A stretch of 32,000 bases of DNA from Moraxella nasovis (GCF_022701215.1 NZ_CP089976.1:1996237-2028236), one strand, 5' to 3'. Shown: positions 3,332 through 32,000, numbered from the stretch's first letter. Notes: a model not told the origin generated them from the sequence alone. Program-made: numbers and translations.

Positions 3332-3359
3332 AATAACTCCTTAGTTTTGTTGATTAAAA

Positions 3360-6683: not shown

Positions 6684-6720
6684 GCTTGGCTACTTGGTAT
6701 GTTAAGCTAACAGCGTACTA

Positions 6721-6746
6721 AGCTCGACTTATCGTCGGGCTTTTTT
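6721..6746 (+). terminator. Intrinsic terminator after the lipoprotein gene
   Basis: AGCTCGAC / GTCGGGCT form an 8-bp stem (one G.U pair) with a 5-nt loop, followed by a T6 run (6741-6746). Confidence 0.7.
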
Positions 6747-6822
6747 GTTGATTAGTCATGCAAGACAGCTTATTATTTGGTATAATACCAGGTAAATTTA
6801 TCACTATCTTAAGGAGAATTTC

Positions 6823-7860: not shown

Positions 7861-7872
7861 GCTATTGCTTTT

Positions 7873-7905
7873 TATAAAACCCAGCTTTTTTTGTTGGGTT
7901 TTATA
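7873..7905 (+). terminator. Intrinsic terminator after fba
   Basis: TATAAAACCCA (7873-7883) pairs with TGGGTTTTATA (7895-7905). The loop and flanks are T-rich. Confidence 0.75.
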
Positions 7906-7926
7906 GTTTTAAGACAAAGGATTTTT

Positions 7927-9719: not shown

Positions 9720-11138
9720 ATGGTAGGCAAAACCCTATACGATAAATTATGGCAAGACCATTTGGTCAAACAGCGTGATGATGGCTCGGCACTCATCTAT
9801 ATTGACCGCCATTTATTGCATGAAGTAACTAGCCCCCAAGCTTTTGAAGGCTTATCTTTGGCAGGGCGGACACCTTGGCGATTGTCTGCTAATATCGCAA
9901 CGCCTGACCATAACGTCCCCACTTCCACTTTTGAGCGTACACAAGGCATTAGCGGCATTAGCGATGACATCTCACGCATTCAAGTCAAAACGCTTGATGA
10001 CAACTGCAAAAATTTTAATGTCATGCAGTTTGGTATTAATGACGAACGCCAAGGCATTGTGCATGTGGTCGGGCCTGAGCAAGGGCTTGTTTTACCGGGT
10101 ATGACGGTGGTGTGCGGTGATAGTCATACTGCCACGCATGGGGCTTTGGGCTGTTTGGCACATGGTATTGGCACAAGTGAAGTGGAACACGTCTTGGCAA
10201 CAGGGTGCTTGATTGCCAAAAAAATGAAAAATATGCGTATCGTGGTTGATGGCAGACTTGCCAAAGGCGTAACGCCAAAAGACGTGGTGCTGGCGATTAT
10301 CGGTAACATTGGTACGGCTGGTGGTACAGGCTATGCCATTGAATTTGCAGGCGAAGTATTCAATGATATGTCTATTGAAGGGCGTATGACTGTTTGTAAT
10401 ATGGCGATTGAAGCTGGGGCAAGGGTGGGACTTGTGGCGGTGGACGATAAAACCATTGACTATGTCAAAGGTCGTCCTTATGCACCCACAGGCGAGGATT
10501 GGGAGTGTGCGGCTACTTATTGGCGGTCGTTGCATTCTGACGAAGGGGCTGTCTTTGATAAAGAGATTTGGCTTGATGGCAGTCAAATTGCACCGCAGGT
10601 ATCGTGGGGGACATCGCCTGAAATGGTGGTGGACATCACCCAATCTGTTCCGACTTTGCAGATGGCAAAAGATGAGACGCAAAAGGCAGATTGGCAACGT
10701 GCCTATGCTTATATGGGGCTGACAGCAGGTCAGTCATTAAGCGACATCAAGCTTGACCGTGTATTTATTGGGTCGTGTACCAATTCACGCATTGAAGATT
10801 TGCGAGCGGCGGCAAGCGTGATAAAAGGTCGCAAAGTAGCGGATACTATCAAAGAAGCGTTGGTGGTGGCAGGCTCTGGATTGGTTAAAGCCCAAGCCGA
10901 ACAAGAAGGTTTGGACAAAATCTTTAAAGAGGCAGGGTTTGAATGGCGGCAGCCGGGGTGTTCTATGTGCCTTGCGATGAATGCTGATAAACTTAAAGCA
11001 GGTGAGCATTGTGCCAGTACCAGTAACCGTAATTTTGAAGGTCGTCAAGGCAATGGTGGACGCACGCACCTTGTCAGTCCAGAAATGGCGGCAGCGGCAG
11101 CGATAGCAGGGCATTTTGTGGACGTGCGGACGTTTTGA
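9720..11138 (+). CDS. leuC: 3-isopropylmalate dehydratase large subunit
   Basis: Aconitase-family motifs are present: [33 protein letters not shown] and CSMCLAMN (Fe-S ligands). Length is 472 aa. Confidence 0.97.
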
Positions 11139-11849: not shown

Positions 11850-12380
11850 ATGAATCTAACTGCCAACACCTACCTAGATGTCCGTAATCCCACCCAGCCC
11901 ACAGGCGAGATGATATTGACCTGTGCCGATATTGCCAATGAAAGCACATTATCTAATGACTATGTCGCCAATATTTGGGGCTATACAGGGGGTAATATCA
12001 GCCCAGAATTGATGTGGCAAAATGCCCCCAAAGACACCAAAAGTTTTGTCATCACGCTATTTGACCCTGACGCACCCACAGGCTCTGGCTTTTGGCATTG
12101 GAATGTGTTTAATATTCCTGCTGATTGGACGGCATTACCCAAAAATAAATCCAATGATTTTGGTGATGGTATTATTGAGCTTAAAAATGACGCAGGACTA
12201 ACTGGCTTTATTGGGGCATTTCCACCCAAAGGCGATAAACCACACCGCTATATTTTTACGCTATACGCCCTAAATGAAAAACTGGATTTAAACAATAGCA
12301 TTAGCCCTGCGGTATTGGGATTTAATTTAAATGGTAAAGTTTTGGCGACAGCTAAATTGACGGCTTATTATCATTGGTAA
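11850..12380 (+). CDS. YbhB/YbcL-family PEBP (Raf kinase inhibitor-like) protein
   Basis: GGNISPELMW..., TLFDPDAPTGSGFWHWNVFNIPA and PPKGDKPHRYIFTLYAL closely parallel E. coli YbhB. AAGGA lies 8 nt before the ATG. Confidence 0.88.
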   Translation: MNLTANTYLDVRNPTQPTGEMILTCADIANESTLSNDYVANIWGYTGGNISPELMWQNAPKDTKSFVITLFDPDAPTGSGFWHWNVFNIPADWTALPKNKSNDFGDGIIELKNDAGLTGFIGAFPPKGDKPHRYIFTLYALNEKLDLNNSISPAVLGFNLNGKVLATAKLTAYYHW

Positions 12381-12390
12381 TTATTGAACA

Positions 12391-12768
12391 ATGAAAGAAA
12401 ATAGCGATTTTTTAGACTTTTATAGAAATATCACATTTTCTGATAACTATGATGTTAATTCATTTATTGGTAAATGGATTGATGATGCGATTTGGTCGGA
12501 TGAAGAGTATATCAAATTAGAAAAATCGCTATTGACTATTCAAAAAGCATATCCCTATCCAACCGATATTCCAAGAGAAATTATCATATCACTTTATAGA
12601 ATTATTGAGTTGATGATGATACCAAATTGGTTAGATTTTGATGTTGAAAAATCCAATCTGAATGATGAGAGTGATATCTTTGATAGATTTGAGAGATTAA
12701 AATTGGTCATTTCTTATGTTTTGTCTGGCAATGATATTCAAGAAATAGGATTTGGTTATAATCCATAA
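12391..12768 (+). CDS. Hypothetical acidic protein (125 aa)
   Basis: Clean ORF 10 nt after the PEBP stop. AT-rich codon usage. No recognisable motif. Confidence 0.6.
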   Translation: MKENSDFLDFYRNITFSDNYDVNSFIGKWIDDAIWSDEEYIKLEKSLLTIQKAYPYPTDIPREIIISLYRIIELMMIPNWLDFDVEKSNLNDESDIFDRFERLKLVISYVLSGNDIQEIGFGYNP

Positions 12769-12831
12769 TTATTTGTTAAAATTAAGGCAATCTATTTGGA
12801 TTATCTTATTTTTTTGAAATTAAGGTGTAAA

Positions 12832-13479
12832 ATGAAAAAATACCTAACCGAAATCGGCATTGTTGCCCCATTAGACCGTGCCAATGTAGATACCGATTTA
12901 ATTATCCCCAAGCAGTTTTTAAAATCCATCAAACGCACAGGGTTTGGTGATAATTTATTTGATGAACTGCGTTATTTGGACGAAGGCTACTTGGGGCAAG
13001 ACATCAATAAACGCCCCAAAAATCCTGATTTTATCTTAAATCAAGACCGCTATGCCAACGCCACCATCTTGCTTGCTCGTGCTAATTTTGGCTGTGGGTC
13101 TAGCCGTGAACACGCACCGTGGGCGTTGAATGAATTTGGGTTTCGCACGGTGATCGCCCCAAGTTTTGCTGATATTTTTTATAATAACTGTTTTAAAAAC
13201 GGAATGCTCCCTGTTATTTTAAAAGAAAGTGAAATTGATGAATTATTCAAAGAATGTTTTGATAATATCGGCTACCAATTAACGGTGGATTTGGCAAATC
13301 AAAAAGTGATTAGCCCAAGTGGTAAAGAATACCATTTTGAAGTTGATGAATTTCGTAAGCATTGCTTGCTTAATGGCTTAGATGATATTGGTTTGACGTT
13401 GCAAAATAGCGATGAAATTCGTGCCTTTGAAGAAAAGGCGAGAGCGGATAGACCTTGGGTGTTTAGAGAGTTAAGATGA
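12832..13479 (+). CDS. leuD: 3-isopropylmalate dehydratase small subunit
   Basis: [31 protein letters not shown] and [18 protein letters not shown] 12832 follows AAGGTG. Confidence 0.95.
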
Positions 13480-14122
13480 ATGAAAAACTTATTTTTATCA
13501 TCTTCTTTGTTTGATGTTGCAAAATTTTTGCCGAGTTTTTTAAGTGGTATTGACAAAAATAAGCAATTTAAAAGCGTGGCTTTTATTGATGTTGCCAGTC
13601 AAATAGAAGAGTATAAAGCCAATATTGACCGTGCCAAATGTGCTTTTGATGAGCTTGGTTTTTTGATTGAAATGATTGACTTTAACCAATCATCTGATGA
13701 CATCAAAAAATCCATTGTTTATTGCGATATGGTTTATGTTGCTGGTGGTAATACGCCTTATTTATTAGAGAAATTAAAAGCCAAAAATTTATTAGAGCAA
13801 TTAAAAGCCAAAAAGATTGATGTTTTTTTTAATTGAATGGATTGGACAAGGCAAACCCTATATCGGTGAGAGTGCAGGCAGTGCCATTTTGGCTCAGGAT
13901 ATTAAATATATTTTACCACTAGAAAATGAAGTAGAGCGATTTGATGATTTTGTTGGATTGGGTGTGATAGATTTTTATCCTTTGGTGCATTTTGGTGATA
14001 AACCATTTGATGAAGCTACCAAAACGATTTTTGATAATTATTCATCAAAAGATAAAATGATAGCATTAAACAATCGGCAAGCATTGATAATCTATGACAA
14101 TAAAATGTTAATTCCATCTTAA
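13480..14122 (+). pseudogene. S51 (peptidase E-like) serine peptidase gene split by a frameshift in a T8 tract
   Basis: ORF A (13480-13836) carries VYVAGGNTPYLL. ORF B (13817-14122, +1 frame) carries YIGESAGSAIL (GxSAG nucleophile elbow). The frames meet at the T8 run 13823-13830, and removing one T fuses them into a product of about 212 aa. Confidence 0.75.
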
Positions 14123-20110: not shown

Positions 20111-21427
20111 TTATTTTAGTATAGCGGCACGCCAAGCTGCATCACCGTCTATGTCGCTTGCAGAAACACGTAAACCATCAGCAAAATCATTTAGACGGCG
20201 AAAGCTGGCTAAGCCTGTGTTAGTCTGATTCTCAGCGTCATAATCGTCCATATTAATCGCCATTTGACCACCTGTCATCGCCAAATAGACTTCTGCTAGA
20301 ATCTCTGAGTCAAGCAAAGCCCCGTGGAATGTACGATCTTGAGTGCCGACGTTTAGCCTGCGTCTTAGGGCGTCAAGGGAGTTTTTTTGACCTGGATACA
20401 GCTGTTTGGCGATGTCTAAGGAATCGGTAACCTTCACCCGCTCACTAAAGTCAGTCAATCCAACCTTGTCAAATTCCATTTTCAAAAATCGCATATCAAA
20501 CGGTGCGTTATGGGCGATAACTTCACTGCCGACCATAAAATCATAGATTGCTTGGGCGACGTCTTTAAACTTTGGTTTATCTTCTAAAAACTCGTTAGAA
20601 ATACCGTGAATGCGAATGACTTCTTCGTCCATTTGTTTATCAGGATTGATATAGACGTGTAGCTGATTGCCTGTAAACTTACGCCCAACCATCTCAATAA
20701 TCCCCACCTCGACAATGCGATCACCGTTTTGATCCTCAAAGCCTGTGGTCTCTGTATCCATAATCAGCTGTCTGTTTGAGCTATTTTGGTTGCTAGGCTT
20801 AGGCAAAATCGCCCAAAAGTCGGCATTGGCTTGGCTGGTTTTGCCATCATAGGCAGGATTTTGGGCGTCATTTGGGCTAACAGCAAAACCTTGTTGGTAC
20901 ACATCTATCGCATGCTCTTGTGGTGGAGCGTCGTCAGGTTTGCCATCAGTTGTTTCATTGGCTTTGATAAGCTTACGCCCAGAGCTTGTCACCCCTAGAT
21001 TTGCCAAGTGATCTGCCTTGGTGTTACCTGCATGACCTGCATGACCCTTGACCCAGCACCACTCAATGGTACGGTTTTGGCGAAGCTCATCAAGCTTTTG
21101 CCACAAGTCAAGGTTGATGACAGATTTGCCATCTGCCTTTTGCCAGTTTTTTTGTTTCCAACCGTCAAGCCATTCACTCATGCCTTGCTTAACGTAATTT
21201 GAGTCCGTCCAAAGTTGTAACGGCACATCACTTGGCGTGTTCTGTAAGGCAACGATTGCTGCCATCAGCTCCATGCGGTTATTGGTCGTGTCTGCATCGC
21301 CACCCCAGATATTCTCAATATTACCATCAGTATGGTGGATGTGAACGCCAAAACCGCCAGCCGCTTGGCTGTTTTTGCCATTGCCTTTACAAGCTCCGTC
21401 GGTATAAGCGATTGTTTGATTTATCAT
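20111..21427 (-). CDS. dnaQ: Fusion protein: RNase HI (N-terminal) plus DNA polymerase III epsilon proofreading exonuclease (C-terminal)
   Basis: RNase H part: IAYTDGACKGNG, NNRMELMAAIVAL, WTDSNYV, WVKGHAGHAGNTKADHLAN. A low-complexity linker of about 70 aa follows. DnaQ part: LIMDTETTGF (Exo I), VIAHNAPFDMRFL (Exo II), HGALLDSEILAEVYLAM (Exo III). Confidence 0.92.
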   Translation of the reverse strand: MINQTIAYTDGACKGNGKNSQAAGGFGVHIHHTDGNIENIWGGDADTTNNRMELMAAIVALQNTPSDVPLQLWTDSNYVKQGMSEWLDGWKQKNWQKADGKSVINLDLWQKLDELRQNRTIEWCWVKGHAGHAGNTKADHLANLGVTSSGRKLIKANETTDGKPDDAPPQEHAIDVYQQGFAVSPNDAQNPAYDGKTSQANADFWAILPKPSNQNSSNRQLIMDTETTGFEDQNGDRIVEVGIIEMVGRKFTGNQLHVYINPDKQMDEEVIRIHGISNEFLEDKPKFKDVAQAIYDFMVGSEVIAHNAPFDMRFLKMEFDKVGLTDFSERVKVTDSLDIAKQLYPGQKNSLDALRRRLNVGTQDRTFHGALLDSEILAEVYLAMTGGQMAINMDDYDAENQTNTGLASFRRLNDFADGLRVSASDIDGDAAWRAAILK

Positions 21428-21563
21428 ATGAGTATCTTTTATCACAAAAGCTTAATTATAATCTATTTAGGCATTTTTGTCATGAAACAAGCCTGTGCAT
21501 TTTTAGACCAACTTTGTTATAATGCCATACGATTTGCCACCACAACCCTTATAAAGCCCCATC

Positions 21564-22571: not shown

Positions 22572-23456
22572 ATGTTAAAACCGATTTTAAAATGGGCTGG
22601 TGGCAAGAGTCAGCTGTTATCTCAAATCCAAAACCGCCTGCCAACTTATGTACAAACCCAAGATTTTTGTTTGGTTGAGCCATTTGTTGGTGGTGGGGCG
22701 GTAAGTTTTTGGGCGTTATCGCATTTTCCTAATCTAAAACGGCTGATTATTAATGACATCAATCACGATCTTATTAATGTCTATCGTGTTATTCGTCAAT
22801 CCGCTGACAGATTGATTGATGTGCTTTTTCATATCCAGCAAGAATATGATAATTTAACTGATTTAGAAAGCAAAAAGCCTTATTATTATGCCAAGCGAGA
22901 TTTATATAACTCTCGTAAGTCTGATAATATTACCCAAGCCGCTTTATTCATTTTTTTAAACAAAGCGGGCTTTAATGGTCTATATCGTGTCAATAAAAAT
23001 AATGAATTTAATGTGCCAATTGGCAGTTACAAAAAACCACAATTTTTAGACAAAGAGCTGATTTATCAATTGCAAAAATACCTAAAAAATGTGGAAATAT
23101 TAACAGGTGATTATGAGCAAATTTTGAATAAACTAGACAATACTCTACCTTGTTTATTTTATATTGATCCTCCCTATCGCCCGCTTAGTAATACATCAAA
23201 CTTTAATCATTATGCTCATCAAGAATTTGATGATAATGAACAGGTTCGTCTAGCACAATTTTGTCGTCAATTAGATAAATTAGGTTATCAATTTTTACTG
23301 AGTAATTCTGACCCCAAAAATAGCAATCCTAATGACAATTTTTTTGATGAACTGTATCAACAGTTTACCATCGAGAGAGTGATGGCGAAACGTGCAATCA
23401 ATGCCAAAGGCGATGGACGGTCGGCGATTAGCGAGATTTTAGTTTATAATTATTAG
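22572..23456 (+). CDS. Dam-family (alpha class) GATC N6-adenine DNA methyltransferase, DpnM / M.MboIA-like
   Basis: [21 protein letters not shown] (FxGxG) and a central IDPPY. It is the first gene of the three-gene cassette. Confidence 0.92.
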
Positions 23457-23464
23457 GAGTGTAT

Positions 23465-24352
23465 ATGAAAGATATTTATGATTCAGCACATTTTGACCTA
23501 CTCATAAGCACTTTAAAAGAAAAGGGCTTGATACAATATGATTATTTTGTAAATTGGGCAAAAGTTTTTGATAATATCACGCCGATTGAAAAAGAATTGA
23601 ATTTATTAAATACAGCAATTGGTAAGGATAATGTTGATGAAGTGCTATTTGATATTTTTAAAACTTATCCAAAAACTATTAAAGTCATTCCTATTTTATT
23701 GGCTATTCGTGATAAATCTATTGAAGTTTTGATAGATAGCTCAAATTTTATTTATAGAAATTTTAACTTTAATGATAAAAACATTGATGATGATAAAATT
23801 CATGGACTAATTGAGCTTCTGCTACAAAGTGGTTTTGTTGAATTGATTAAAAATAAACAAATAAAAAATTTGGTAGATTATTGTATTGGCGTAGAAGTAG
23901 GTCTAGATAGTAATGGACGTAAAAACCGTAGTGGTACATCTATGGAGATACTGGTGGAGTCTTTTGTTGCGTTATTCTGTCATAATCATAATTTAGAATA
24001 TCTCGTACAAGCCAATGCCAAAAAAATTGCGGACGCTTGGGGAATAGAAATACAAATTGATAAAACATCTCGTATTATAGATTTTGTTATAAAAAACGGA
24101 GAGAAATTATATTTTATTGAATGTAATTTTTATAAGGGCGGTGGCTCTAAGCTCAAATCAACCGCAACCGAATATATAGAAATGGCTCGTTTTTGGAAAA
24201 ACCAAGATATTGAATTTATTTGGGTAACAGACGGTGCAGGTTGGGCAGGAACACATAGACCACTAAGAGATTATTTTAATAAGGGTAATATTTTATTGAA
24301 TATACAGATGTTACAAGATGATTATTTAGCAAAAATAATTTTGGATAACTGA
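23465..24352 (+). CDS. Type II restriction endonuclease, DpnII/MboI family (GATC)
   Basis: IGVEVGLDSNGRKNRSGTSME, IDFVIKNGEKLYFIECNFYKGGGSKLKSTA and WVTDGAGW match the blocks I recall from R.DpnII. AGGAG lies 5 nt before ATG 23465. Confidence 0.88.
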   Translation: MKDIYDSAHFDLLISTLKEKGLIQYDYFVNWAKVFDNITPIEKELNLLNTAIGKDNVDEVLFDIFKTYPKTIKVIPILLAIRDKSIEVLIDSSNFIYRNFNFNDKNIDDDKIHGLIELLLQSGFVELIKNKQIKNLVDYCIGVEVGLDSNGRKNRSGTSMEILVESFVALFCHNHNLEYLVQANAKKIADAWGIEIQIDKTSRIIDFVIKNGEKLYFIECNFYKGGGSKLKSTATEYIEMARFWKNQDIEFIWVTDGAGWAGTHRPLRDYFNKGNILLNIQMLQDDYLAKIILDN

Positions 24353-25165
24353 ATGCTATATTTTCAATCTACCGATAAAAATTTTAATTTATATCAAGGC
24401 GATTGTATAAAAATCATGCCAACATTGCAGGCAAATAGCATTGATATGATCTTTGCCGATCCGCCTTATTTTTTATCTAATGATGGTTTGACAGTTAAAG
24501 ATGGTGTGATTCAATCGGTTAATAAAGGCAATTGGGATAAGTTTAGTACAGATGATGAAATTTATCGTTTTACTTATGAATGGTTAAATGAATCTCGGAG
24601 AATTTTAAAAGATAATGGCACAATTTGGATAAGTGGCACACATCATAATATTTTTATGTTAGGGCGTATTTTAGAGCAATTGGGTTTTAAGATATTAAAT
24701 ATGATTACTTGGGAGAAACCAAATCCGCCACCAAATTTCTCATGTCGTTATTTTACTTATTCTGCCGAGTGGATTATTTGGGCAAGAAAATATCCCAAGA
24801 TCCCACATTATTTCAATTATGAGTTAATGAAAAAACTCAATGCTAATAAGCAAGCCAAAGATGTTTGGCGACTGCCTGCGGTGAATAAATGGGAAAAACA
24901 ACAAGGCAGGCACCCAACTCAAAAACCACTAGGGTTGTTATCTCGGATTATTTTGGCCTCTACCCAAGAATATGATATTATTGTAGACCCATTCTCAGGT
25001 TCGGCAACCACAGGGATTGCTGGTGCAATTTTAAATAGAAAATTCATCGGTATTGAATCAAACGATGAATTTTTAGCACTATCTAAAAGGCGTTATATTG
25101 ACTTAACGCCCAACAACAAAACGTCATTAAAACAAAAAATCAGAGAGCAAATCAGTTTAATATGA
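24353..25165 (+). CDS. Second (beta class) N6-adenine DNA methyltransferase, DpnA / M.MboIC-like
   Basis: N-terminal FADPPY and C-terminal DPFSGSATTG (SAM-binding). The start directly abuts the endonuclease stop (TGAATG). Confidence 0.9.
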   Translation: MLYFQSTDKNFNLYQGDCIKIMPTLQANSIDMIFADPPYFLSNDGLTVKDGVIQSVNKGNWDKFSTDDEIYRFTYEWLNESRRILKDNGTIWISGTHHNIFMLGRILEQLGFKILNMITWEKPNPPPNFSCRYFTYSAEWIIWARKYPKIPHYFNYELMKKLNANKQAKDVWRLPAVNKWEKQQGRHPTQKPLGLLSRIILASTQEYDIIVDPFSGSATTGIAGAILNRKFIGIESNDEFLALSKRRYIDLTPNNKTSLKQKIREQISLI

Positions 25166-25412: not shown

Positions 25413-27935
25413 TTAATATTTCACACTTGCACCGATACTAAAATTACGTCCCATTTGTGGAGTGTACGGTATGTACGTTTCGTGGGCATAGATGGTATCA
25501 TTGAGTAGGTTGTTGCCTTGCAAAAATACCGAATATTCTAGGTTGTTTTTGTAAGTGTGATAATCTATCCCAAGATTTAGCAAGCGATGTCCTTGCGTTG
25601 CCTTAAAGTTGCGTTCGTGATGGCGGTCAGGCACTTTGTTTTGGGCAAAAACGTGGGTATATTCTAAACTGCCAGACCACTTATCATTAAAGTTAGCCAA
25701 AACTTTTGCACCAAGTCGCATGGGCGGTAGGCGTGGTGTATAGGTGTCTGGTTGAGATTTGTAGTTAAAGGTCTCTTCACCAGTCCAACGATTAGGCTCG
25801 TAACCGACAACCACATCGGGTAAATGATGCAGACGACCTTTGACATAATCGCCAAAAATCTCGCCATAATAGCGGTCGTTAAATTGATAGCCAATTTTAC
25901 CTTCTATGCCATAGAATTTGGCAGGGGCTTGATTGTAGCGATTAATGTGTAGCATTTGTGGGTGTTTGACGACTTCTGTGCCTAAGTGGTCGTTGACGGT
26001 TTCAAGGTAAATATAATTATCAAAATCATACAGATAACTGCCAAGTTGATAATTAAATTTATCGCCTTGATATTTAAATGACAGCTCGTAGTTATTGGTC
26101 TTTTCTTTGGTCAGATTGCGATTACCCGCCTCAAACGAATTGGTCGCCAAATGCGGTCCGTGCGTGTACAGCTCTTGGGCATTGGGTAGGCGTTCTTGGT
26201 GCGAGACGTTCAGCGACAGTGTATGATTAGGCAAAAACCGCCAATGCACACCGCCAGCATAAGATACAGCGGTTTTTTTGTGCGGTGCTGTGGCTTTTTT
26301 GGCTTCAATGGTGGCTTGTTCTAGCTCATCGCCTTTTAGGTGACTTCTGTCTTTCATGGTTTTTTCAATGAAATCTAGATCATAATCCATGCTGATTTTT
26401 TGATGTTCCACTCGTGTGCCAAAATCTAGCGTGACTTTATCAAAATCTAACTTCTCAATGCCAAAAATACTGCTATTTTTGGTGGTGTTCTCAGTAAGTA
26501 GTGGTTGCTCTCGCCATTCGTTAATCGGGTTTTTGGCACTGCTTTTTTGATTAGTGTGCTGCACACCCCACACGCCAGATAAATTACCACCAAAAGCAGG
26601 CTTGGGTGCAAGCGTGGCTTCTAGGCGAGCTGCCACTCCTTTATTTTTAAAGACATTGGTTGCAAAACTACCTTCTTTTTCGTTATGCTGATAATCCACA
26701 TAAGCAGCATCACCACGGATTTTTGAGATGGCTTGCCAAGGGGTGTTCTGCCATTCGCCACGCATATCAAAACGTTTAGTAGTCAAGTCAATCATCGGTG
26801 CACCACCACCTGTATGAAAATGTCCTTTGTGTTCGTTGTGGCAATCGGGGCGTGGGTTTAGGTAATTGATGTCTTTATCGGTACTCAGCTGTGGGTATTT
26901 TGCCAAATAGGGGTGGGTGTAGAGTTTGTCAAAAATGTAAGACGCTCCACAGCCTTCATATAGATGATTATGAGCAGGCAGACCATACTCATCGTGGCGG
27001 TGGCTAAACGCCCCCCCAAGATAGCCATTATCGCCAACCCAAGATACACCAATACTGGCAGATTTAGAATCTGCCCAGCTGTCTGGCAGCTTGTCAAAGC
27101 TTTTGTATTTGATTGAATTTTTGACTTCATGCAGACGAGCTTTTTCGGCTTCGTATTTGGCGTGGCTATTGGTGTATACGTAGTCATAGACACTATTGGA
27201 GTAGCGTAATTCGCCTTTTTTCCATTTGTCATAGTCGGCTTGTAGATTTTCTAAGTCATAAGGCACGTTGGCATAGGCTTTTAATTCATCAATGCTAGAA
27301 AACTGCTCTTGGCGATAACGTGGCGTGCGGTAGTTGTCTGCATTTTTGTGCAGGCCTTCAATATGTAGAACAAAATTATCGCCAATTGGACCAGTAAGCT
27401 GTGTGGTGAGAAGCTTTTCTTGATTACCTGTGTTAAAGCGTACGCTGGTCTCTGTGGTGAGCTGGTTGGGAATTTGGGTGGGGATTTTATTGTCAATGAC
27501 GTTCACCGCACCTGCTGAGTTGCCTGAGCTGTATTTTAGGGTGTTGACACCACGCACAATCTCAACTCTTCTTGCCAAAGGTGTATCAACGGTGATGGCA
27601 TGATCGGGCGATAAATTTGCCATATCAATAACATCAGCACCGTTTTGTAAAATCTTTAGTCGCTTGCCTTCTTGACCACGAATGATGGGGGCGGACGCAC
27701 CACCACCAAATTGGTTGGAGTGAATGCCAAGCTCGTCAGATAACGCATCGCCTAGCGTGGTGGCACGTTTTTTGAGTACGTCGTGACTTACTCGCTGGTC
27801 ACTGATGTTGGTTTTGCCTTTGACGTTGACGGTCAGCGTATCTAAGACGACATTGGGGTCGTCATTGGCATGAACGACACTCACTAAGGCTAAGCTTAAG
27901 CTAATGGCAAGGCTGGTAGGTTTAAATAGTTTCAT
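25413..27935 (-). CDS. TonB-dependent outer-membrane receptor, ZnuD-like (metal piracy type)
   Basis: Signal peptide MKLFKPTSLAISLSLALVSVVHA, TonB-box-like DTLTVNV, a plug domain, and a C-terminal beta-barrel ending ...FSIGASVKY. His/Cys-rich loops are AHNHLYEGCG and PDCHNEHKGHFHTGGG. ATG 27935 is chosen over the upstream extension in the ORF track. Confidence 0.85.
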   Translation of the reverse strand: MKLFKPTSLAISLSLALVSVVHANDDPNVVLDTLTVNVKGKTNISDQRVSHDVLKKRATTLGDALSDELGIHSNQFGGGASAPIIRGQEGKRLKILQNGADVIDMANLSPDHAITVDTPLARRVEIVRGVNTLKYSSGNSAGAVNVIDNKIPTQIPNQLTTETSVRFNTGNQEKLLTTQLTGPIGDNFVLHIEGLHKNADNYRTPRYRQEQFSSIDELKAYANVPYDLENLQADYDKWKKGELRYSNSVYDYVYTNSHAKYEAEKARLHEVKNSIKYKSFDKLPDSWADSKSASIGVSWVGDNGYLGGAFSHRHDEYGLPAHNHLYEGCGASYIFDKLYTHPYLAKYPQLSTDKDINYLNPRPDCHNEHKGHFHTGGGAPMIDLTTKRFDMRGEWQNTPWQAISKIRGDAAYVDYQHNEKEGSFATNVFKNKGVAARLEATLAPKPAFGGNLSGVWGVQHTNQKSSAKNPINEWREQPLLTENTTKNSSIFGIEKLDFDKVTLDFGTRVEHQKISMDYDLDFIEKTMKDRSHLKGDELEQATIEAKKATAPHKKTAVSYAGGVHWRFLPNHTLSLNVSHQERLPNAQELYTHGPHLATNSFEAGNRNLTKEKTNNYELSFKYQGDKFNYQLGSYLYDFDNYIYLETVNDHLGTEVVKHPQMLHINRYNQAPAKFYGIEGKIGYQFNDRYYGEIFGDYVKGRLHHLPDVVVGYEPNRWTGEETFNYKSQPDTYTPRLPPMRLGAKVLANFNDKWSGSLEYTHVFAQNKVPDRHHERNFKATQGHRLLNLGIDYHTYKNNLEYSVFLQGNNLLNDTIYAHETYIPYTPQMGRNFSIGASVKY

Positions 27936-27965
27936 GGCATTTACACAGGTGGTTAACATTAAAAG

Positions 27966-27996
27966 TATATTATAACATAATAATAACATGATGCAA
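27966..27996 (-). promoter_or_regulatory. Candidate promoter of the receptor gene with a Zur-box-like operator
   Basis: The minus strand reads TTGCAT (27996-27991), 16 nt, then TATAAT (27974-27969). ATGTTATAATATA (27978-27966) matches the left half and centre of the gammaproteobacterial Zur box GAAATGTTATAnTATAACATTTC. Additional ATGTTA repeats flank it. Confidence 0.4.
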
Positions 27997-28345
27997 TAAT
28001 ATTTCACTATATTAAGCAAGTATTGCTGGTTGCACTATATTGATAGCTGTATTAATAGTAGTGCAAGCTGTTGCAAATAAACAGGTATGACGCTATCTTA
28101 AGGGGGTGTGATTTTAAAAAAAAGACAAAAATTGTAAATTTTTTTTAAGTTTTGCACCATATTTTTCATGGTTACCTTAATTACCAAACCAAAAATTACC
28201 AAACTAAAGGTGTTCTTATTTTGCTAAGTTTGGATAAAAATTTAGATTTCATTCAGATTGGCTGTAATCAGCTTAAGGTGCTTAGCAATTGGTGTGGGAT
28301 TTACGGCTGGTTTAATACAGCCCCTTATTTATGGCATGGTGTTTT

Positions 28346-28573
28346 ATGCTAAACCAAGATAAAGATAAAATCTTAAATATGATTGACAAAGAAATAAATA
28401 GCAGTTATGTTAATTATCTAAGTAAACAACAGATGAAGGCACTCTTTGAAGGCTTTCAAAAAGACCAATTAACTGATGATGATAAAAAAGACATTGCCAA
28501 CCATATCTTAGCTAATTATCTTGATGATATGCATGAGACAGAAAGACTGATAGATGTCTTATTAAATGAATGA
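28346..28573 (+). CDS. Hypothetical acidic helical protein (75 aa), possible orphan immunity-type gene
   Basis: ATG 28346 overlaps the stop of a possible upstream 43-codon ORF (ATGCTAA). AT-rich. No motif recognised. Confidence 0.5.
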   Translation: MLNQDKDKILNMIDKEINSSYVNYLSKQQMKALFEGFQKDQLTDDDKKDIANHILANYLDDMHETERLIDVLLNE

Positions 28574-28729: not shown

Positions 28730-28972
28730 ATGTTTGAATTTATTGCAGGTATCTTTTCATATCTTGGCTCTGATATAGAAAAAACCAAATCAATAAAAGT
28801 GCAATTATTGATTTCATTATTTTTTGGTTTTTGTATTTTTATTGTCATATGTGTTAAAGAATTTTTCATTAACTCTGATATAAAGCTGATCGCTTTTTCG
28901 CTCATATTATCGCTTTTGGTTTCAATATTTTTCTTTATTTGTTTTTTGATTTCTAATTTATTCAAAAAATAA
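28730..28972 (+). CDS. Small polytopic membrane protein (80 aa), possible orphan bacteriocin-immunity gene
   Basis: Two to three hydrophobic segments (LLISLFFGFCIFIVICV, LIAFSLILSLLVSIFFFICFLI). It has the same orientation as all other island genes. A competing antisense ORF (28681-28965) exists, so the call is tentative. Confidence 0.4.
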   Translation: MFEFIAGIFSYLGSDIEKTKSIKVQLLISLFFGFCIFIVICVKEFFINSDIKLIAFSLILSLLVSIFFFICFLISNLFKK

Positions 28973-29037: not shown

Positions 29038-29124
29038 ATGAAAAAACTCGTTTTATACTTATCTTGCGGATTTGTACTATCCGCCCACACCCACTTACTG
29101 CCCCAACCAAAGATAATATCCTAA
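29038..29124 (+). CDS. Micro-ORF (28 aa) MKKLVLYLSCGFVLSAHTHLLPQPKIIS; signal-peptide-like or small hydrophobic peptide
   Basis: ATG start. The C-terminal AHTHLLPQPKIIS part lies in the conserved module and is identical in the paralogous micro-ORF at 30983-31072. The N-terminal halves differ in nucleotides, but both are MKK plus a hydrophobic stretch. Confidence 0.35.
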   Translation: MKKLVLYLSCGFVLSAHTHLLPQPKIIS

Positions 29125-29177
29125 CAACTAATAACTGTCTTTAAAATAACCAACCAACCAAATCTTTATCACACCTA

Positions 29178-29207
29178 TTGACAAAGTACAAGTGTTCTTA
29201 GTAATAT
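29178..29207 (+). promoter_or_regulatory. Cassette promoter, copy 1
   Basis: TTGACA (29178-29183), 18 nt, then TAATAT (29202-29207). It is identical in all three copies. Confidence 0.65.
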
Positions 29208-29211
29208 CAAT

Positions 29212-29292
29212 GATAACTGCTCCAAGATGATAATCATTCCACCTATCATCACCTTGGACAGTTATCGGCTATCAGTTTGACTGATAGTTTTT
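29212..29292 (+). promoter_or_regulatory. Structured leader, copy 1: a long hairpin containing a Fur-box-like core, then a terminator-like hairpin with a U-tract
   Basis: Hairpin 1 (29212-29266) pairs GATAACTG/CAGTTATC, TCCAAG/CTTGGA and ATGATA/TATCAT, about 20 bp in total. Hairpin 2 (29269-29287) pairs CTATCAGT-ttg-ACTGATAG and is followed by T5. ATGATAATCATT lies at 29227-29238. Confidence 0.6.
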
Positions 29293-29322
29293 CATAACAT
29301 CAATTTAGTTAAGGAAAACTTT

Positions 29323-29409
29323 ATGAAAAAGCTATCAATCCTAGCACTAACAATAAGTGCTACCGTAGCCACTGCTCCTGCATTTGCAAAAGACAGCAAC
29401 CAATTATAA
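29323..29409 (+). CDS. uORF encoding only a Sec-type signal peptide: MKKLSILALTISATVATAPAFA/KDSNQL (28 aa)
   Basis: This is the best Shine-Dalgarno of the cassette (AAGGA 7 nt before the ATG). It shows the canonical n/h/c regions with an AFA cleavage motif, then a stop 6 codons later. It is conserved in all three copies. Confidence 0.55.
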   Translation: MKKLSILALTISATVATAPAFAKDSNQL

Positions 29410-29436
29410 CACAGCTATCCCAACCACGAAGCAGAT

Positions 29437-29703
29437 TTGTCTTTTGCATTTGATGATAGTCAAAACTTGCAAGCGGTTACCATGACTGATAGCCAAATGC
29501 AAGAGACACAAGGGGCTTGGATTGGTAATGCCTTTGGCGGCTTAATGGGAGGTGTTGGCGGTCATTATGGCTATATGGCGAGTGCTGTGGCTAGCGGCAC
29601 CTATAATAGAAACGCACATCTTGCAGCGATTGGCACAGGTGCAGTTGTTGGCGGTATTAATGGATATGCAAGTACAACTGGCAAAAATATCAAGATTCGT
29701 TAA
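29437..29703 (+). CDS. Bacteriocin/microcin precursor 1: GA-type double-glycine leader plus a 61-aa Gly/Ala-rich peptide
   Basis: Leader (M)SFAFDDSQNLQAVTMTDSQMQETQGA, then WIGNAFGGLMGGVGGHYGYMASAVASG...GAVVGGINGYA (colicin V / class II microcin-like composition). The start is uncertain (TTG 29437 or ATG 29482). Confidence 0.7.
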   Translation: MSFAFDDSQNLQAVTMTDSQMQETQGAWIGNAFGGLMGGVGGHYGYMASAVASGTYNRNAHLAAIGTGAVVGGINGYASTTGKNIKIR

Positions 29704-29759
29704 TCAACTTTCTAAAAAGCGTTACTACTTTTATTGGTAACACTTTAAGAGATTTTCTC

Positions 29760-30032
29760 ATGATAATTATTTATATTGTGGCAACTTTGGGATTATTTAT
29801 TGGTTGGATTAAAAATACCTACCTGTTTAAAGGTAAGTTGTGGCTAGATAGGATATTTCTTTTAATATCAACTTCATTGCTAATATGGTGTTGTGTAAGT
29901 ATTACAAAATATGTCAATCATCTTAGCGATAATTTGGCTTTTATTCATTTGGCTTGTTATTTTGGATATCTTTTATTTTTGACTGTGGTTTTTTATAAAT
30001 TGGTAAAGCTTTTTGATAAGAAATTTTCATGA
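29760..30032 (+). CDS. Putative immunity protein 1 (90 aa, about 3 TM segments)
   Basis: It lies immediately downstream of bacteriocin 1. Hydrophobic segments: IIIYIVATLGLFIGWI, IFLLISTSLLIWCCVSI, LACYFGYLLFLTVVFY. Confidence 0.65.
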   Translation: MIIIYIVATLGLFIGWIKNTYLFKGKLWLDRIFLLISTSLLIWCCVSITKYVNHLSDNLAFIHLACYFGYLLFLTVVFYKLVKLFDKKFS

Positions 30033-30091
30033 AAATATCCTTATTACTTTTACCTTTTATAACAACCATCGCCACGCCGACCTACCCCTAA
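30029..30091 (+). CDS. Micro-ORF (20 aa) MKISLLLLPFITTIATPTYP
   Basis: The ATG overlaps the immunity-1 stop (ATGA). It is positionally equivalent to the micro-ORFs at 29038 and 30983. Confidence 0.25.
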   Translation: MKISLLLLPFITTIATPTYP

Positions 30092-30165
30092 CGGCTGATG
30101 ATATTTTGGCGGATAAAAATCGTTTTAAATAAAATAATTAACCAAACAAATCTTTACCATACTTA

Positions 30166-30195
30166 TTGACAAAGTACAAGTGTTCTTAGTAATAT
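30166..30195 (+). promoter_or_regulatory. Cassette promoter, copy 2
   Basis: TTGACA (30166-30171), 18 nt, then TAATAT (30190-30195). Confidence 0.65.
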
Positions 30196-30199
30196 CAAT

Positions 30200-30281
30200 G
30201 ATAACTGCTCCAAGATGATAATCATTCAACCTATCATCACCTTGGATAGTTATCGGCTATCAGTTTTGATTGATAGTTTTT
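30200..30281 (+). promoter_or_regulatory. Structured leader, copy 2
   Basis: It forms the same two hairpins. Stem differences from copy 1 are C-to-T changes giving G.U pairs (TAGTTATC, ATTGATAG). ATGATAATCATT lies at 30215-30226 and a T5 run at 30277-30281. Confidence 0.6.
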
Positions 30282-30306
30282 CACAAAGTCAATTAAGGAA
30301 AACTCT

Positions 30307-30387
30307 ATGAAAAAGTTATCAATCCTAGCACTAACAATAAGTGCTACCGTAGCCACTACTCCTGCATTTGCAAAAGATAGCGACTAA
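30307..30387 (+). CDS. uORF encoding only a signal peptide: MKKLSILALTISATVATTPAFA/KDSD (26 aa)
   Basis: It has the same Shine-Dalgarno and signal peptide as copy 1. The stop lies 13 nt upstream of the ATG of toxin 2. Confidence 0.55.
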   Translation: MKKLSILALTISATVATTPAFAKDSD

Positions 30388-30400
30388 TTATAGCACTGCC

Positions 30401-30667
30401 ATGACGGATAGCCAAATGCAGGAAACACAAGGGGCAAGATTTCCAAAATTTATTAGCAATGTAAGAGTGGATGGTCCAGATAAAGGATTTCGACAACATA
30501 GCAATGGCAGAATATTTCAAATAAGGTATGGCAATACCCCAAAAACTAGAACGCCTGTATTTAGGTTAGATCCCCATGACAACCCATCTCCAACCAAATT
30601 GCATATGCACATTGCACCAGATATCAATGCACATAGACCTTGGAATGCACCTTGGAAAAAATTTTAG
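30401..30667 (+). CDS. Toxin precursor 2: MTDSQMQETQGA leader plus a 76-aa basic, His-containing domain of unknown fold
   Basis: The leader is identical to copy 1. The mature part is RFPKFISNVRVDGPDKGFRQHSNGRIFQIRYGN...FRLDPHDNPSPTKLHMHIAPDINAHRPWNAPWKKF, which is not Gly-rich or hydrophobic. An alternative TTG start lies at 30368. Confidence 0.65.
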   Translation: MTDSQMQETQGARFPKFISNVRVDGPDKGFRQHSNGRIFQIRYGNTPKTRTPVFRLDPHDNPSPTKLHMHIAPDINAHRPWNAPWKKF

Positions 30668-30676
30668 GTACTATAA

Positions 30677-30937
30677 ATGAAATATGATAATTTTATCAAT
30701 AGTTTGAATGATTATTTGCATGGTCGTATTGATGGGAGATTATTATTAAATGCTTGGCAGGACTGCCCAGAAGAATTAAAACCCATTTACTATCAATTAT
30801 TTCATTTGATTGGCGATGAAGACATACGAAAAAAGGACGTGGATTACAAAAATTTTCAACTATCCTTGGTTAACAATGTAATTGGATTATTAAAAGCAGG
30901 TGATATTGAAAAATTACAAGGTATCAGCTTAATATAG
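30677..30937 (+). CDS. Putative immunity protein 2 (86 aa, soluble, acidic)
   Basis: It starts 9 nt after the toxin-2 stop. It has no signal peptide or TM segment. Its size and position resemble immunity proteins of enzymatic bacteriocins. Confidence 0.6.
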   Translation: MKYDNFINSLNDYLHGRIDGRLLLNAWQDCPEELKPIYYQLFHLIGDEDIRKKDVDYKNFQLSLVNNVIGLLKAGDIEKLQGISLI

Positions 30938-30982
30938 AGCTGATGATAAAGTAAAAGTTATTTAAAAATTTTGGGAAATTTT

Positions 30983-31072
30983 GTGAAAAAATCGTTTTTA
31001 TCTTTTTTAGTGTTAGGTTTTATAACCACCGCCCACACCCACTTACTGCCCCAACCAAAGATAATATCCTAA
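30983..31072 (+). CDS. Micro-ORF (29 aa) (M)KKSFLSFLVLGFITTAHTHLLPQPKIIS
   Basis: GTG start. The C-terminal 13 residues are identical to the 29038 micro-ORF. Confidence 0.3.
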   Translation: MKKSFLSFLVLGFITTAHTHLLPQPKIIS

Positions 31073-31142
31073 CAAATAATAACTGTCTTTAAAATAATTA
31101 AAAAAATAAAATAATTAACCAAATAAATCTTTATCACACCTA

Positions 31143-31172
31143 TTGACAAAGTACAAGTGTTCTTAGTAATAT
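31143..31172 (+). promoter_or_regulatory. Cassette promoter, copy 3
   Basis: TTGACA (31143-31148), 18 nt, then TAATAT (31167-31172). Confidence 0.65.
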
Positions 31173-31176
31173 CAAT

Positions 31177-31258
31177 GATAACTGCTCCAAGATGATAATC
31201 ATTCCACCTATCATCACCTTGGGTAGTTATCGGCTATCAGTTTTGACTGATAGTTTTT
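31177..31258 (+). promoter_or_regulatory. Structured leader, copy 3
   Basis: It forms the same two hairpins. CTTGGGTAGTTATC replaces CTTGGACAGTTATC, giving two wobble-compatible changes. ATGATAATCATT lies at 31192-31203 and a T5 run at 31254-31258. Confidence 0.6.
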
Positions 31259-31283
31259 CACAAAGTCAATTAAGGAAAACTCT

Positions 31284-31370
31284 ATGAAAAAGTTATCAAT
31301 CCTAGCACTAACAATAAGTGCTACCGTAGCCACTGCTTCTGCATTTGCAAAAAACAGCAACCAATTATAA
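31284..31370 (+). CDS. uORF encoding only a signal peptide: MKKLSILALTISATVATASAFA/KNSNQL (28 aa)
   Basis: Same architecture as copies 1 and 2. Confidence 0.55.
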   Translation: MKKLSILALTISATVATASAFAKNSNQL

Positions 31371-31401
31371 CACAGCTATCCCAACCACCCAAGAAGTAGA
31401 T

Positions 31402-31608
31402 TTGTCTTTTGCTTTTGACGATAGTCAAAACTTGCAAGCGGTTGACATGACTGATGATGAGATGAAAGAGACGGAAGGGGCTTTTGTTCCTATTGTGCTT
31501 AATTTAGCTGGACGTTTTATTACTAGCCAAGTTGCAAAACACCATTTAACCAATGTAGGCTTGGTCTATGGTACTTATACTTGGGGCAAAAGCCAAGGCA
31601 AAAAATAA
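31402..31608 (+). CDS. Bacteriocin precursor 3: GA-type leader plus a 41-aa cationic peptide
   Basis: Leader (M)SFAFDDSQNLQAVDMTDDEMKETEGA, then FVPIVLNLAGRFITSQVAKHHLTNVGLVYGTYTWGKSQGKK. The start is uncertain (TTG 31402 or ATG 31447). Confidence 0.65.
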   Translation: MSFAFDDSQNLQAVDMTDDEMKETEGAFVPIVLNLAGRFITSQVAKHHLTNVGLVYGTYTWGKSQGKK

Positions 31609-31637
31609 CTGAATTAAAGTCAAAACTTAATTCTATA

Positions 31638-31676
31638 AATATCAAGCTATTTGCTGAAAAAGCAAATAGCTTGATA
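31638..31676 (+). other. Perfect 16-bp-stem hairpin between bacteriocin 3 and its immunity gene
   Basis: ATATCAAGCTATTTGC (31638-31653) and GCAAATAGCTTGATAT (31661-31676) flank a 7-nt loop. No U-tract follows directly. Confidence 0.7.
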
Positions 31677-31706
31677 TACCCAAAATTTTAGATACAAGAT
31701 TTAATT

Positions 31707-31979
31707 ATGAAAAAATGTCCAAATTGCCATAAACATTGCATTACAATTTCTGAATTTTCAGGTGTATGCCCAAATTGTCATACAGAACTTAAAACTTCTC
31801 ATGTTTTTTCCATGTTAATCATAATAATATTGTTGCTTATTATAGCTATTAGTGGAGTTTTAGGAAATTTCTACATATCTACATTTGCCCTACTAGCCAT
31901 TCTTATATACAAACTATTTAGTTATCAAATAGAAATTTTGCTATTTCCTTTACTAATTAAAAAATCCAATCTCTTATGA
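31707..31979 (+). CDS. Putative immunity protein 3 (90 aa): N-terminal CxxC...CxxC ribbon plus 2 TM segments
   Basis: CPNCHKHC...CPNCH is followed by the hydrophobic segments MLIIIILLLIIAISGVL and ISTFALLAILIY. Confidence 0.6.
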   Translation: MKKCPNCHKHCITISEFSGVCPNCHTELKTSHVFSMLIIIILLLIIAISGVLGNFYISTFALLAILIYKLFSYQIEILLFPLLIKKSNLL

Positions 31980-32000
31980 TGAAAAAAAATTATCTTATTC
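31976..32000 (+). CDS. Start of a further small ORF (MMKKNYLI...), 3'-partial at the window edge
   Basis: The ATG overlaps the immunity-3 stop (ATGA), the same arrangement as at 30029. Confidence 0.2.

Follow-up and report, generated by a model that had tools for sequence, protein, structure and literature searches.

A tandem array of putative toxin/immunity cassettes in Moraxella nasovis: probably a Sec-dependent secretion locus of FapF/FapD type with its toxins disabled by a common frameshift

The final 3 kb of a 32,000-nt stretch of the Moraxella nasovis chromosome (NZ_CP089976.1:1996237-2028236; henceforth the window, with coordinates counted from its first letter) carries three tandem units at 29038-32000, each composed of a 5' remnant of an outer-membrane protein (OMP) gene, a promoter, a structured 5'-untranslated region (5'-UTR), the 5' module of a precursor gene, a payload and an immunity gene, in this order. 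The GC content of the array is 28-35%, as against 40-44% in the flanking DNA. The units are interpreted below as putative toxin/immunity cassettes of a Sec-dependent secretion locus of the FapF/FapD (NapF/NapP) type, in which the toxins of this strain are probably disabled. The features of the three units, including the transmembrane (TM) segments, isoelectric points (pI) and open reading frames (ORFs) referred to in the text, are as follows.

29038-29124, plus strand: OMP 5' remnant 1, degenerate; aligns with remnants 2 and 3 and with the inter-cassette remnants of a Moraxella-like contig (L007)
29178-29207, plus strand: promoter-like site TTGACA-18-TAATAT of unit 1, kept in all units
29203-29325, plus strand: structured 5'-UTR RNA of unit 1, 119 bits with covariance model R1
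29323-29409, plus strand: signal-peptide ORF of precursor 1 (MKKLSILALTISATVATAPAFA/KDSNQL-TAA), severed from the remainder; intact equivalents in P0010 and the L007 cassettes
29410-29517, plus strand: linker (DLSFAFDDSQNLQAV) and pro-peptide MTDSQMQETQGA of precursor 1
29518-29703, plus strand: payload T1, 61 aa, 39% Gly+Ala, pI 10.0; homologues P0002-P0008
29760-30032, plus strand: putative immunity gene I1, 90 aa, three TM/hydrophobic segments; linked to T1 homologues
30029-30132, plus strand: OMP 5' remnant 2 (...HADLPLTADDILADKNRFK), matching P0063
30166-30195, plus strand: promoter-like site of unit 2
30191-30309, plus strand: structured 5'-UTR RNA of unit 2, R1 124 bits
30307-30387, plus strand: signal-peptide ORF of precursor 2, severed by a +1 insertion
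30401-30436, plus strand: pro-peptide MTDSQMQETQGA of precursor 2, the linker being gone through a 69-nt deletion
30437-30667, plus strand: payload T2, a 76-aa basic putative toxin domain, pI 11.3, with invariant R, D, H-x-H and H
30677-30937, plus strand: putative immunity gene I2, 86 aa, acidic, soluble, without a TM segment; homologue in M. oculi
30983-31072, plus strand: OMP 5' remnant 3, degenerate and near-identical to remnant 1
31143-31172, plus strand: promoter-like site of unit 3
31168-31286, plus strand: structured 5'-UTR RNA of unit 3, R1 126 bits
31284-31370, plus strand: signal-peptide ORF of precursor 3, severed by a +1 insertion (here in an A6 run)
31371-31482, plus strand: linker and pro-peptide MTDDEMKETEGA of precursor 3
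31483-31608, plus strand: payload T3, a 41-aa cationic peptide, pI 10.3; homologues in L006, L007, L012, L019 and L024 (Shewanella)
31707-31979, plus strand: putative immunity gene I3, 90 aa, zinc ribbon CxxC...CxxC plus TM; weak zinc-ribbon Pfam matches
31976-32000, plus strand: probable start (MMKKNYLI...) of a full-length FapF-like OMP gene that leaves the window, proposed from synteny

In pairwise comparison, the three units are 63-84% identical in the upstream OMP-remnant region, 95-98% identical from the promoter to the start codon, 92-97% identical over the 28-codon ORF segment, and 67-89% identical over the 36-nt segment that encodes the leader ending in Gly-Ala. Past GGGGC(T/A), the first 13-14 aligned nucleotides are about 40-50% identical, which equals the background level; therefore, the similarity does end right after Gly-Ala. 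By its sequence, the promoter of each unit is of the sigma-70 type, and TTGACA-18-TAATAT aligns with TTGACA/TACTAT in L007. A first-pass annotation of this DNA had described three tandem units with a near-identical 5' module, a similarity that stops exactly after Gly-Ala, a separate promoter for each cassette, and unrelated payloads followed by neighbour genes of particular kinds; the unit alignment and the recomputed sizes and properties of the products bear out each of these descriptions.

The payloads differ from one another in kind as well as in sequence. T1 is shorter (61 aa) than its 86-87-aa homologues, and T1-I1 neighbours also occur in M. oculi (L016), Moraxella sp. (L018), Wielerella bovis (L001) and a set of Neisseria-like metagenomic loci (L002-L005). 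Similarly, an I3-type gene follows the T3 homologues in five loci (L006, L007, L012, L019 and the Shewanella locus L024). A library of 1.84 billion proteins contains 16 relatives of T2, and in nearly all of them the domain is C-terminal; some of these are precursors with a signal peptide and LSxxEMxETEGA, and others carry the domain past the end of an Rhs/YD core (e.g., at the C-terminus of P0089, P0094 and P0096). Five of its residues are invariant (R43, D45, H56, H58 and H66), and the domain has neither a Pfam family nor a fold match in the PDB. The single homologue of I2 (L016:4383-4643, E = 7e-30) is an orphan at the edge of the M. oculi array. Searches of Pfam and NCBIfam with the six payload and neighbour ORFs yielded no family, and a weak TagQ match among them was rejected, being composition-driven and far below the cutoff.

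Because T1-I1 and T3-I3 recur as linked pairs in other genera, the units of the window are taken to be putative toxin/immunity cassettes, as had been proposed from the sequence at the outset. The accompanying proposal, that the locus follows the logic of polymorphic toxins, is likewise supported, with one N-terminal module joined to many payloads and the T2 domain found on Rhs C-termini as well.

The 5' module contains an element that the first-pass annotation had overlooked. In every unit it holds an ATG-initiated ORF, MKKLSILALTISATVAT(A/T)(P/S)AFAK..., that encodes a Sec-type signal peptide ending after 26-28 codons and is, judged by its sequence, a textbook example of the class. In relatives, the counterpart of this ORF is the N-terminus of one continuous precursor. 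Longer homologues of precursor 1 in W. bovis and metagenomes combine the signal peptide, a linker, ELSQxEMKETEGA and a Gly-rich domain in a single ORF, and a query built as a reconstructed intact module matched M. cuniculi P0010 and others of identical layout; one-ORF homologues of this kind comprise P0002-P0007, P0010-P0012 and five L007 cassettes. Across 87 loci, 85 of the 102 precursors have the intact layout of signal peptide, linker, motif and payload, so that the motif is internal and is preceded by a Sec signal peptide and a linker of 20-45 aa. The signal peptide is in frame in 28 of the 36 cassettes from other Moraxella loci, compared with none of the three in the window.

The consensus drawn from 90 unique leaders is [L/M]-[S/T]-x-x-[E/Q]-M-x-E-T-[E/Q]-G-[A/E], with W, V or F as the next residue. 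At position -1, Ala or Glu occurs but never Gly, which the search pattern permitted, and position -12 is Met in the Moraxella precursors. The window units have the linker DLSFAFDDxxNLQ and the pro-peptide M-T-x-x-[E/Q]-M-x-E-T-[E/Q]-G-A. In Helicobacter-type loci (L036, from a Helicobacteraceae metagenome-assembled genome, at 2924-8300; L032, L042 and L051), up to four precursors lie in tandem, and their leader, LSP(H/Y)EMQTTEGE, has Glu rather than Ala at -1; the predicted cleavage motif of the family therefore tolerates G-E.

Nucleotide alignment locates the difference between the window and its intact relatives directly past the AFA cleavage site, where all three units have 16 nt in place of 15 between the GCA that ends AFA and TATAAC. 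Removal of 1 nt yields complete precursors of 119 aa for unit 2 and 107 aa for unit 3, the latter collinear with M. cuniculi P0010. A further 4 nt are missing from unit 1, whose frame is restored in the sequence as it stands except for one TAA that interrupts it; the 69-nt deletion of unit 2, in frame after removal of the extra base, has taken away the conserved linker. As sequenced, then, all three precursors read as disrupted between the signal peptide and the leader by a common +1-nt insertion, and the earlier assumption that they are functional is not supported by the alignment and the repair tests. Since the lesion is common to the units and lies within flanks that are 95-98% identical, it suggests that a module already carrying the frameshift spread by duplication or gene conversion.

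Two partner genes lie beside the precursors in W. bovis (L001), the Neisseria-like metagenome (L002-L005), M. cuniculi (L006) and L007. The product of the first is about 290-320 aa long, has a signal peptide and the character of a beta-barrel, and in L001 and L002 ends in the barrel-typical HNF/HTF; that of the second is a stand-alone C39 peptidase, about 211-235 aa long, which likewise carries a signal peptide and has the conserved catalytic Cys and His. A profile of the peptidase, scanned against one genome per species, matched 137 species genomes, including many Moraxella species, Psychrobacter, Acinetobacter, Shewanella, Helicobacter, Neisseria, Kingella and Thauera. The median length of the peptidase ORF in the 87 loci is 233 aa, no ATP-binding cassette (ABC) motifs are fused to it, and no ABC exporter was found near the precursor or C39 genes; a FapF-like barrel gene lies upstream of C39 in 65 of the 87, on the same strand in all 58 loci that have a full-length copy. 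Nearly all loci with enough sequence have at least one precursor, consisting of a Sec signal peptide, a 20-45-aa linker, the leader and a payload of 20-120 aa.

The best curated family for the C39 protein is FapD (E = 1e-22 to 1e-31, below the equivalog cutoff), and it also matches structures of the double-glycine protease domain of peptidase-containing ABC transporters (PCATs). For the barrel profile, FapF is the sole match in the PDB (E = 3.5e-4). A barrel of M. nasovis itself, P0063, is annotated as a 'transporter' on the same 2.03-Mb contig as the window, and the top 17 Foldseek matches of its AlphaFold model (pLDDT 78) are all FapF (E = 8.5e-15, TM-score 0.69-0.74), ahead of other barrels. 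C39 directly follows the OMP gene in M. cuniculi and 12 other Moraxella loci.

Some ORFs of 1,214-1,353 aa with Walker-A and LSGGQ motifs, situated after C39 in L013, L015, L016 and L020, were considered as ABC transporters and are instead read as probably smc, because L007 has an SMC-domain gene at the same position. By analogy, the position of smc in these five loci would predict the gene content beyond the window end in M. nasovis.

Because a C39 peptidase accompanies the family in 87 loci, the interpretation of the Gly-Ala motif as a double-glycine-type processing signal is supported, and this part of the first-pass annotation stands. Its other part, a microcin-type leader served by a PCAT with an HlyD-type partner, does not, since the peptidase stands alone, carries a signal peptide and is in no case fused to an ABC domain, its partner is a FapF-like barrel, and the motif is internal. 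The absence of any C39-containing ABC exporter or membrane-fusion protein from the window had been described correctly, and the gene annotation of the window contains no ABC or membrane-fusion gene. It had also been suggested that the absence of a PCAT from the whole genome would defeat the idea of processing and export; as related loci use a stand-alone C39 peptidase and a barrel, that is not a valid test. In the intact relatives, the precursor would be exported by Sec and cleaved by signal peptidase I, the stand-alone periplasmic C39 peptidase would then cut after Gly-Ala, and the product would leave through the FapF-like barrel, a route that has been little studied.

Class II microcins and double-glycine (GG) bacteriocins (e.g., colicin V and McbABCI of M. 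catarrhalis) resemble the family in their type of leader, LSxxELxxIxGG, here ending in G-A, in the use of a C39-family peptidase, in small payloads (some of them Gly-rich) and in an adjacent immunity gene. They differ in that the leader of the present family is internal, after a Sec signal peptide, its C39 peptidase is periplasmic and unfused, and export would proceed in two steps through a barrel with no membrane-fusion protein. Alternatively, translation could begin at the Met of MTDSQMQETQGA, giving a 12-aa microcin-type leader for one-step export by a PCAT and an HlyD-type protein encoded elsewhere. The fit of the motif to LSxxELxxIxGG, the use of G-A by some class II microcins (PMC5557850), the Met at -12 in Moraxella, the lack of a signal peptide on the longest ORFs as sequenced, and a PCAT-type bacteriocin locus in M. 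catarrhalis (PMC2761928) all agree with such a route. It is nevertheless considered very improbable, given that the motif is internal in 85 of the 102 homologous precursors, that Met at -12 is found equally in intact Moraxella precursors, that this ATG has no preceding Shine-Dalgarno sequence, that the peptidase and its FapF-like partner occur with no ABC exporter near the 87 loci, and that curated GG-leader bacteriocin models of NCBIfam and Pfam match none of the precursors.

The short ORF that opens each unit, also passed over at first, is a remnant of the 5' end of a FapF-like OMP gene. HADLPLTADDILADKNRFK of remnant 2 corresponds to residues 12-30 of P0063 with 18/19 identical, remnants 1 and 3 are more decayed, and similar remnants separate the cassettes in L001 and L007. 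At the opposite end of the array, the MMKKNYLI... ORF, of which 25 nt lie within the window, overlaps the stop codon of I3, and the gene order of M. cuniculi L006 is T3 homologue, I3 homologue, barrel and C39. The annotated start of P0063 is without a signal-peptide n-region, and the ORF at 31976 is, on these sequences, most likely the start of P0063. For each cassette, the leader module would act as a left homology arm and the barrel-5' remnant as a right arm, so that cassettes could be gained or replaced by recombination, with the G-A junction serving as both cleavage site and recombination boundary. The earlier suggestion that the repeated module is a substrate for recombination is supported.

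The 5'-UTR downstream of the promoter comprises a long hairpin, a terminator-like hairpin with a U-run, located at about 29292 in unit 1, and the ribosome-binding site (fold z = -6.25). With its covariance model, 29 copies were located in 14 Moraxella sources; each lies on the coding strand, immediately upstream of a precursor gene. The hairpin arms differ among M. nasovis, M. cuniculi and L007, yet their complementarity is kept; compensatory double changes occur in 12 of 24 pairs, and among 500 shuffles 1 reached this number. The numerous G·U pairs argue for an RNA rather than a DNA palindrome. Rfam gave no match for the element at gathering or permissive thresholds, and none of the species-representative genomes contained an exact 28-mer of the hairpin. 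The element would be a cis-regulatory leader, possibly an attenuator, and its high conservation here may reflect the need to keep the immunity genes expressed. A second, unrelated upstream leader ('type B') precedes one Moraxella precursor subfamily (L007:9905-10006, also L007:13840 and L007:14995), in which a long-range pairing is followed by a U-run, with no significant structure in the L007 copy (z = 0).

The closest described system is the nap island of Neisseria, published in 2025 and the sole case in which this gene set is described as a peptide system. The island lies between a pseudouridine synthase gene and hisS and comprises NapR/A/B/C, NapI, NapH, the C39 protein NapP (signal peptide 1-23), the FapF homologue NapF and 'GG peptides' (PMC11798529). 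NapB and NapC are treated there as GG-cleaved cationic peptides that act in autolysis, and the role in stationary-phase autolysis is reported for N. gonorrhoeae only (PMC11798529). L002-L005 share the nap-island flanks (pseudouridine synthase and hisS), and both the nap and the Moraxella loci consist of small genes in an AT-rich island. NapP shares 88% identity with the peptidase of L002 and 41% with that of M. cuniculi; NapF of FA1090 matches only the first 162 of the 289 residues of the L002 barrel, at 69% identity. The identity of NapC is 82% with the immunity protein of L002 and 34% with I1 of the window (E = 1e-9), and over its last 34 residues NapB shares 88% identity with the C-terminus of an intact T1-type toxin; the C-terminal region of T1 is the part kept in gonococcal NapB. 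From these comparisons, NapB looks like the remnant of a toxin gene and NapC like an immunity protein, and the gonococcal island looks like a decayed cassette of the type of cassette 1 of the window. The homology does not contradict the reported autolysis phenotypes. In contrast to the account of the nap paper, the precursors of the intact family join diverse payloads to a Sec signal peptide and an LSxxEMxETEG[A/E] pro-peptide and have immunity genes linked to them; the Moraxella loci are further set apart by their multi-cassette arrays, OMP-5' remnants, structured 5'-UTR and different chromosomal site.

The Sec-exported substrates of Pseudomonas require FapD, a periplasmic C39 peptidase, to exit via FapF (PMC5557850). 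The likeness extends to Sec substrates, a periplasmic C39-type cysteine peptidase and a barrel of the FapF fold, with the route here proposed from the genes. Unlike those of Fap, the substrates are unrelated small peptides and toxin domains rather than amyloid subunits, and unlike FapD, for which no cleavage site has been described, the family of the window offers an explicit conserved G-A motif. FapF is described as having a long N-terminal coiled-coil region, and the barrels of the present family measure about 290-320 aa. The window and the related loci contain no homologues of FapA, FapB, FapC or FapE, and the scores of the peptidase and barrel fall far below the FapD and FapF equivalog cutoffs, so that they are homologues and not orthologues.

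Polymorphic toxins (CdiA-CT/CdiI, Rhs-CT and MafB; PMC3482391) likewise join a constant N-terminal module, across a sharp junction, to variable C-terminal toxins, with cognate immunity genes, broken or orphan cassettes in arrays and orphan immunity genes, and the T2 domain is common to Rhs proteins. Here, unlike in those systems, the whole toxin is tiny (about 100-160 aa), and every cassette keeps its promoter, signal peptide and leader and not just a C-terminal tip. The 2012 survey by Zhang et al. does not list this delivery route and mentions C39-like domains as toxins only (PMC3482391); a 2026 paper on an Acinetobacter microcin concerns canonical export by a PCAT and membrane-fusion protein, which is a different system.

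It is considered probable, at a level well short of certainty, that the array is a Sec-dependent secretion locus of the FapF/FapD (NapF/NapP) type whose toxins are disabled here by the common +1 insertion. Several observations weigh against this. No C39 gene was recovered from M. nasovis with a fused OMP plus C39 query, which returned OMP relatives only, and the adjacency of P0063 to the window end is drawn from synteny and 25 nt of sequence. The route and the killing in Moraxella are likewise proposed from sequence evidence, and in the one experimental study of a related locus, synthetic Nap peptides were without antibacterial activity and did not kill competitors (PMC11798529). In the 29-copy RNA alignment, the 91% of paired cells (22-58% with partners slid) is inflated, as that alignment was fitted to the model. 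Moreover, the payload ORFs are still open, which is unexpected of old pseudogenes, and the frameshifts could be assembly errors, since an identical context recurs in three repeats. Elsewhere in the window, pepE (peptidase E, S51; 13480-14122) is split into two overlapping ORFs at a T8 tract, at about 13823-13830, either as a real pseudogene or through an assembly indel, and this bears on how the cassette frameshifts are judged.

If the extra base were an artefact of assembly or polishing in three near-identical repeats, the real precursors 2 and 3 would be intact, as they become on removal of one base; the pepE split suggests that indel errors occur in this sequence, and the shared context would allow a systematic error or cross-mapped polishing. 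The site, being AAAAGA in units 1 and 2, is not a homopolymer there, the 4-nt loss of unit 1 and the 69-nt deletion of unit 2 are atypical of consensus errors, and all other long ORFs of the window are intact, and an artefact is for these reasons rated as unlikely. A functional interruption, through a programmed +1 frameshift, readthrough of the TAA of unit 1 or phase variation of the A-run, would keep the toxins low or on in a subpopulation. It would account for a lesion at the same place in all three units and for the open payload ORFs; in unit 3, the tract is a pure A6 run on which tRNA-Lys could re-pair from AAA to AAA/AAG in the +1 frame, unit 1 is back in frame with a single TAA, and homopolymer tracts in the 5' regions of the nap genes are phase-variable (PMC11798529). 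Such control is nonetheless unlikely: the tract is short, AAAAGA breaks it in units 1 and 2, different fixes would be needed (a +1 slip in units 2 and 3, readthrough in unit 1), the site has no rare codon, stop codon or Shine-Dalgarno-like stimulator, intact relatives are without such a feature, and decay is common, with unrelated lesions in about 22% of the cassettes of other arrays.

On the preferred reading, in which the common insertion is a real disabling lesion, the toxins as sequenced would be unable to enter the Sec/C39/barrel route; as the promoters, 5'-UTRs and immunity genes of the M. nasovis array remain intact, the locus is most likely now an immunity island and a store of silent toxin cassettes. 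In M. cuniculi DSM 21768 (L008, 8053-9052), I1- and I3-type homologues lie upstream of a barrel and C39 with no leader-bearing precursor detected, and this may be an immunity-only locus.

Two further ORFs lie to the left of the first unit.

28331-28573, plus strand: 80-aa acidic soluble ORF (pI 4.6), a weakly assigned candidate orphan immunity gene at the left edge of the array
28730-28972, plus strand: 80-aa ORF with two TM segments, an orphan immunity-type gene with homologues within other Moraxella arrays

Other Moraxella arrays contain members of the family of the ORF at 28730-28972 (L007:6085-6336, L012:6335-6586 and L020:3491-3757, of which the third comes directly after a Gly-rich toxin), and on this ground the array probably starts upstream of 29038. 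The ORF at 28331-28573 resembles I2 in position, size and charge, and it has no homologue among the fetched loci and no Pfam family. A possible fourth, degenerate module at 28020-28345, hinted at by repeat D5, received no support from alignment.

The rest of the window is ordinary chromosome, with pgk, fba, ruvA, leuCDB, exbBD, nudC, a DpnII restriction-modification system and a TonB-dependent receptor. The receptor gene (25413-28019, minus strand) adjoins the array and encodes a His-rich stretch (…HNEHKGHFH…), and the low-GC (30-33%) DpnII-type cassette at 22572-25165 consists of a D12 adenine methylase, the DpnII endonuclease and a second N6/N4 methylase. Between leuC (9720-11138) and leuD (12796-13479), a PEBP-family gene and an Imm41 (polymorphic-toxin immunity) gene occupy 11850-12768, and the latter is, by its sequence, an orphan immunity gene inserted in a housekeeping operon. 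In a single 444-aa ORF at 20111-21445, an RNase H domain is joined to an exonuclease domain of the RNase T/DnaQ type. At 31-4698, a 961-aa ORF without a Pfam match lies by a phage-type integrase gene (3360-4265) and a DPBB lytic-transglycosylase-like gene (4309-4698), and the region may be the edge of a mobile element.

What is new here is an array-forming, polymorphic form of the recently described Nap/Fap-type secretion loci, with the toxins apparently disabled in this strain, and its valuable parts are the wider family, the conserved pro-peptide, the RNA leader and the reinterpretation of Nap. More broadly, there is perhaps an even chance that the window is one instance of a widespread and essentially unrecognised delivery pathway for polymorphic toxins, present in at least 137 species genomes of the Gamma-, Beta- and Epsilonproteobacteria, which would include small toxins with a Sec signal peptide and the near-universal L-S-x-x-E-M-x-E-T-E-G-A pro-peptide, maturation by a periplasmic C39 peptidase, release through a FapF-like barrel, arm-based cassette exchange, 5'-UTR control in Moraxella, and NapB and NapC as a decayed toxin gene and its immunity protein. 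If this is true, double-glycine-type processing in Gram-negative bacteria would not be tied to ABC exporters, and the combination of Sec, a periplasmic C39 peptidase and a FapF-like barrel would carry a large and diverse set of bacteriocin-like toxins, with an enzymatic-looking domain common to Rhs proteins among the exported cargo. The motif …E-M-x-E-T-E-G-A, with W, V or F after the cut, would provide a conserved candidate substrate for FapD-type peptidases, the N. gonorrhoeae nap island would gain an alternative and testable reading, and the covarying 5'-UTR would be a candidate for a new cis-regulatory RNA of toxin loci. For M. nasovis itself, the retention of three immunity genes with their promoters beside three disabled toxins would fit a 'resistant non-producer' strategy.

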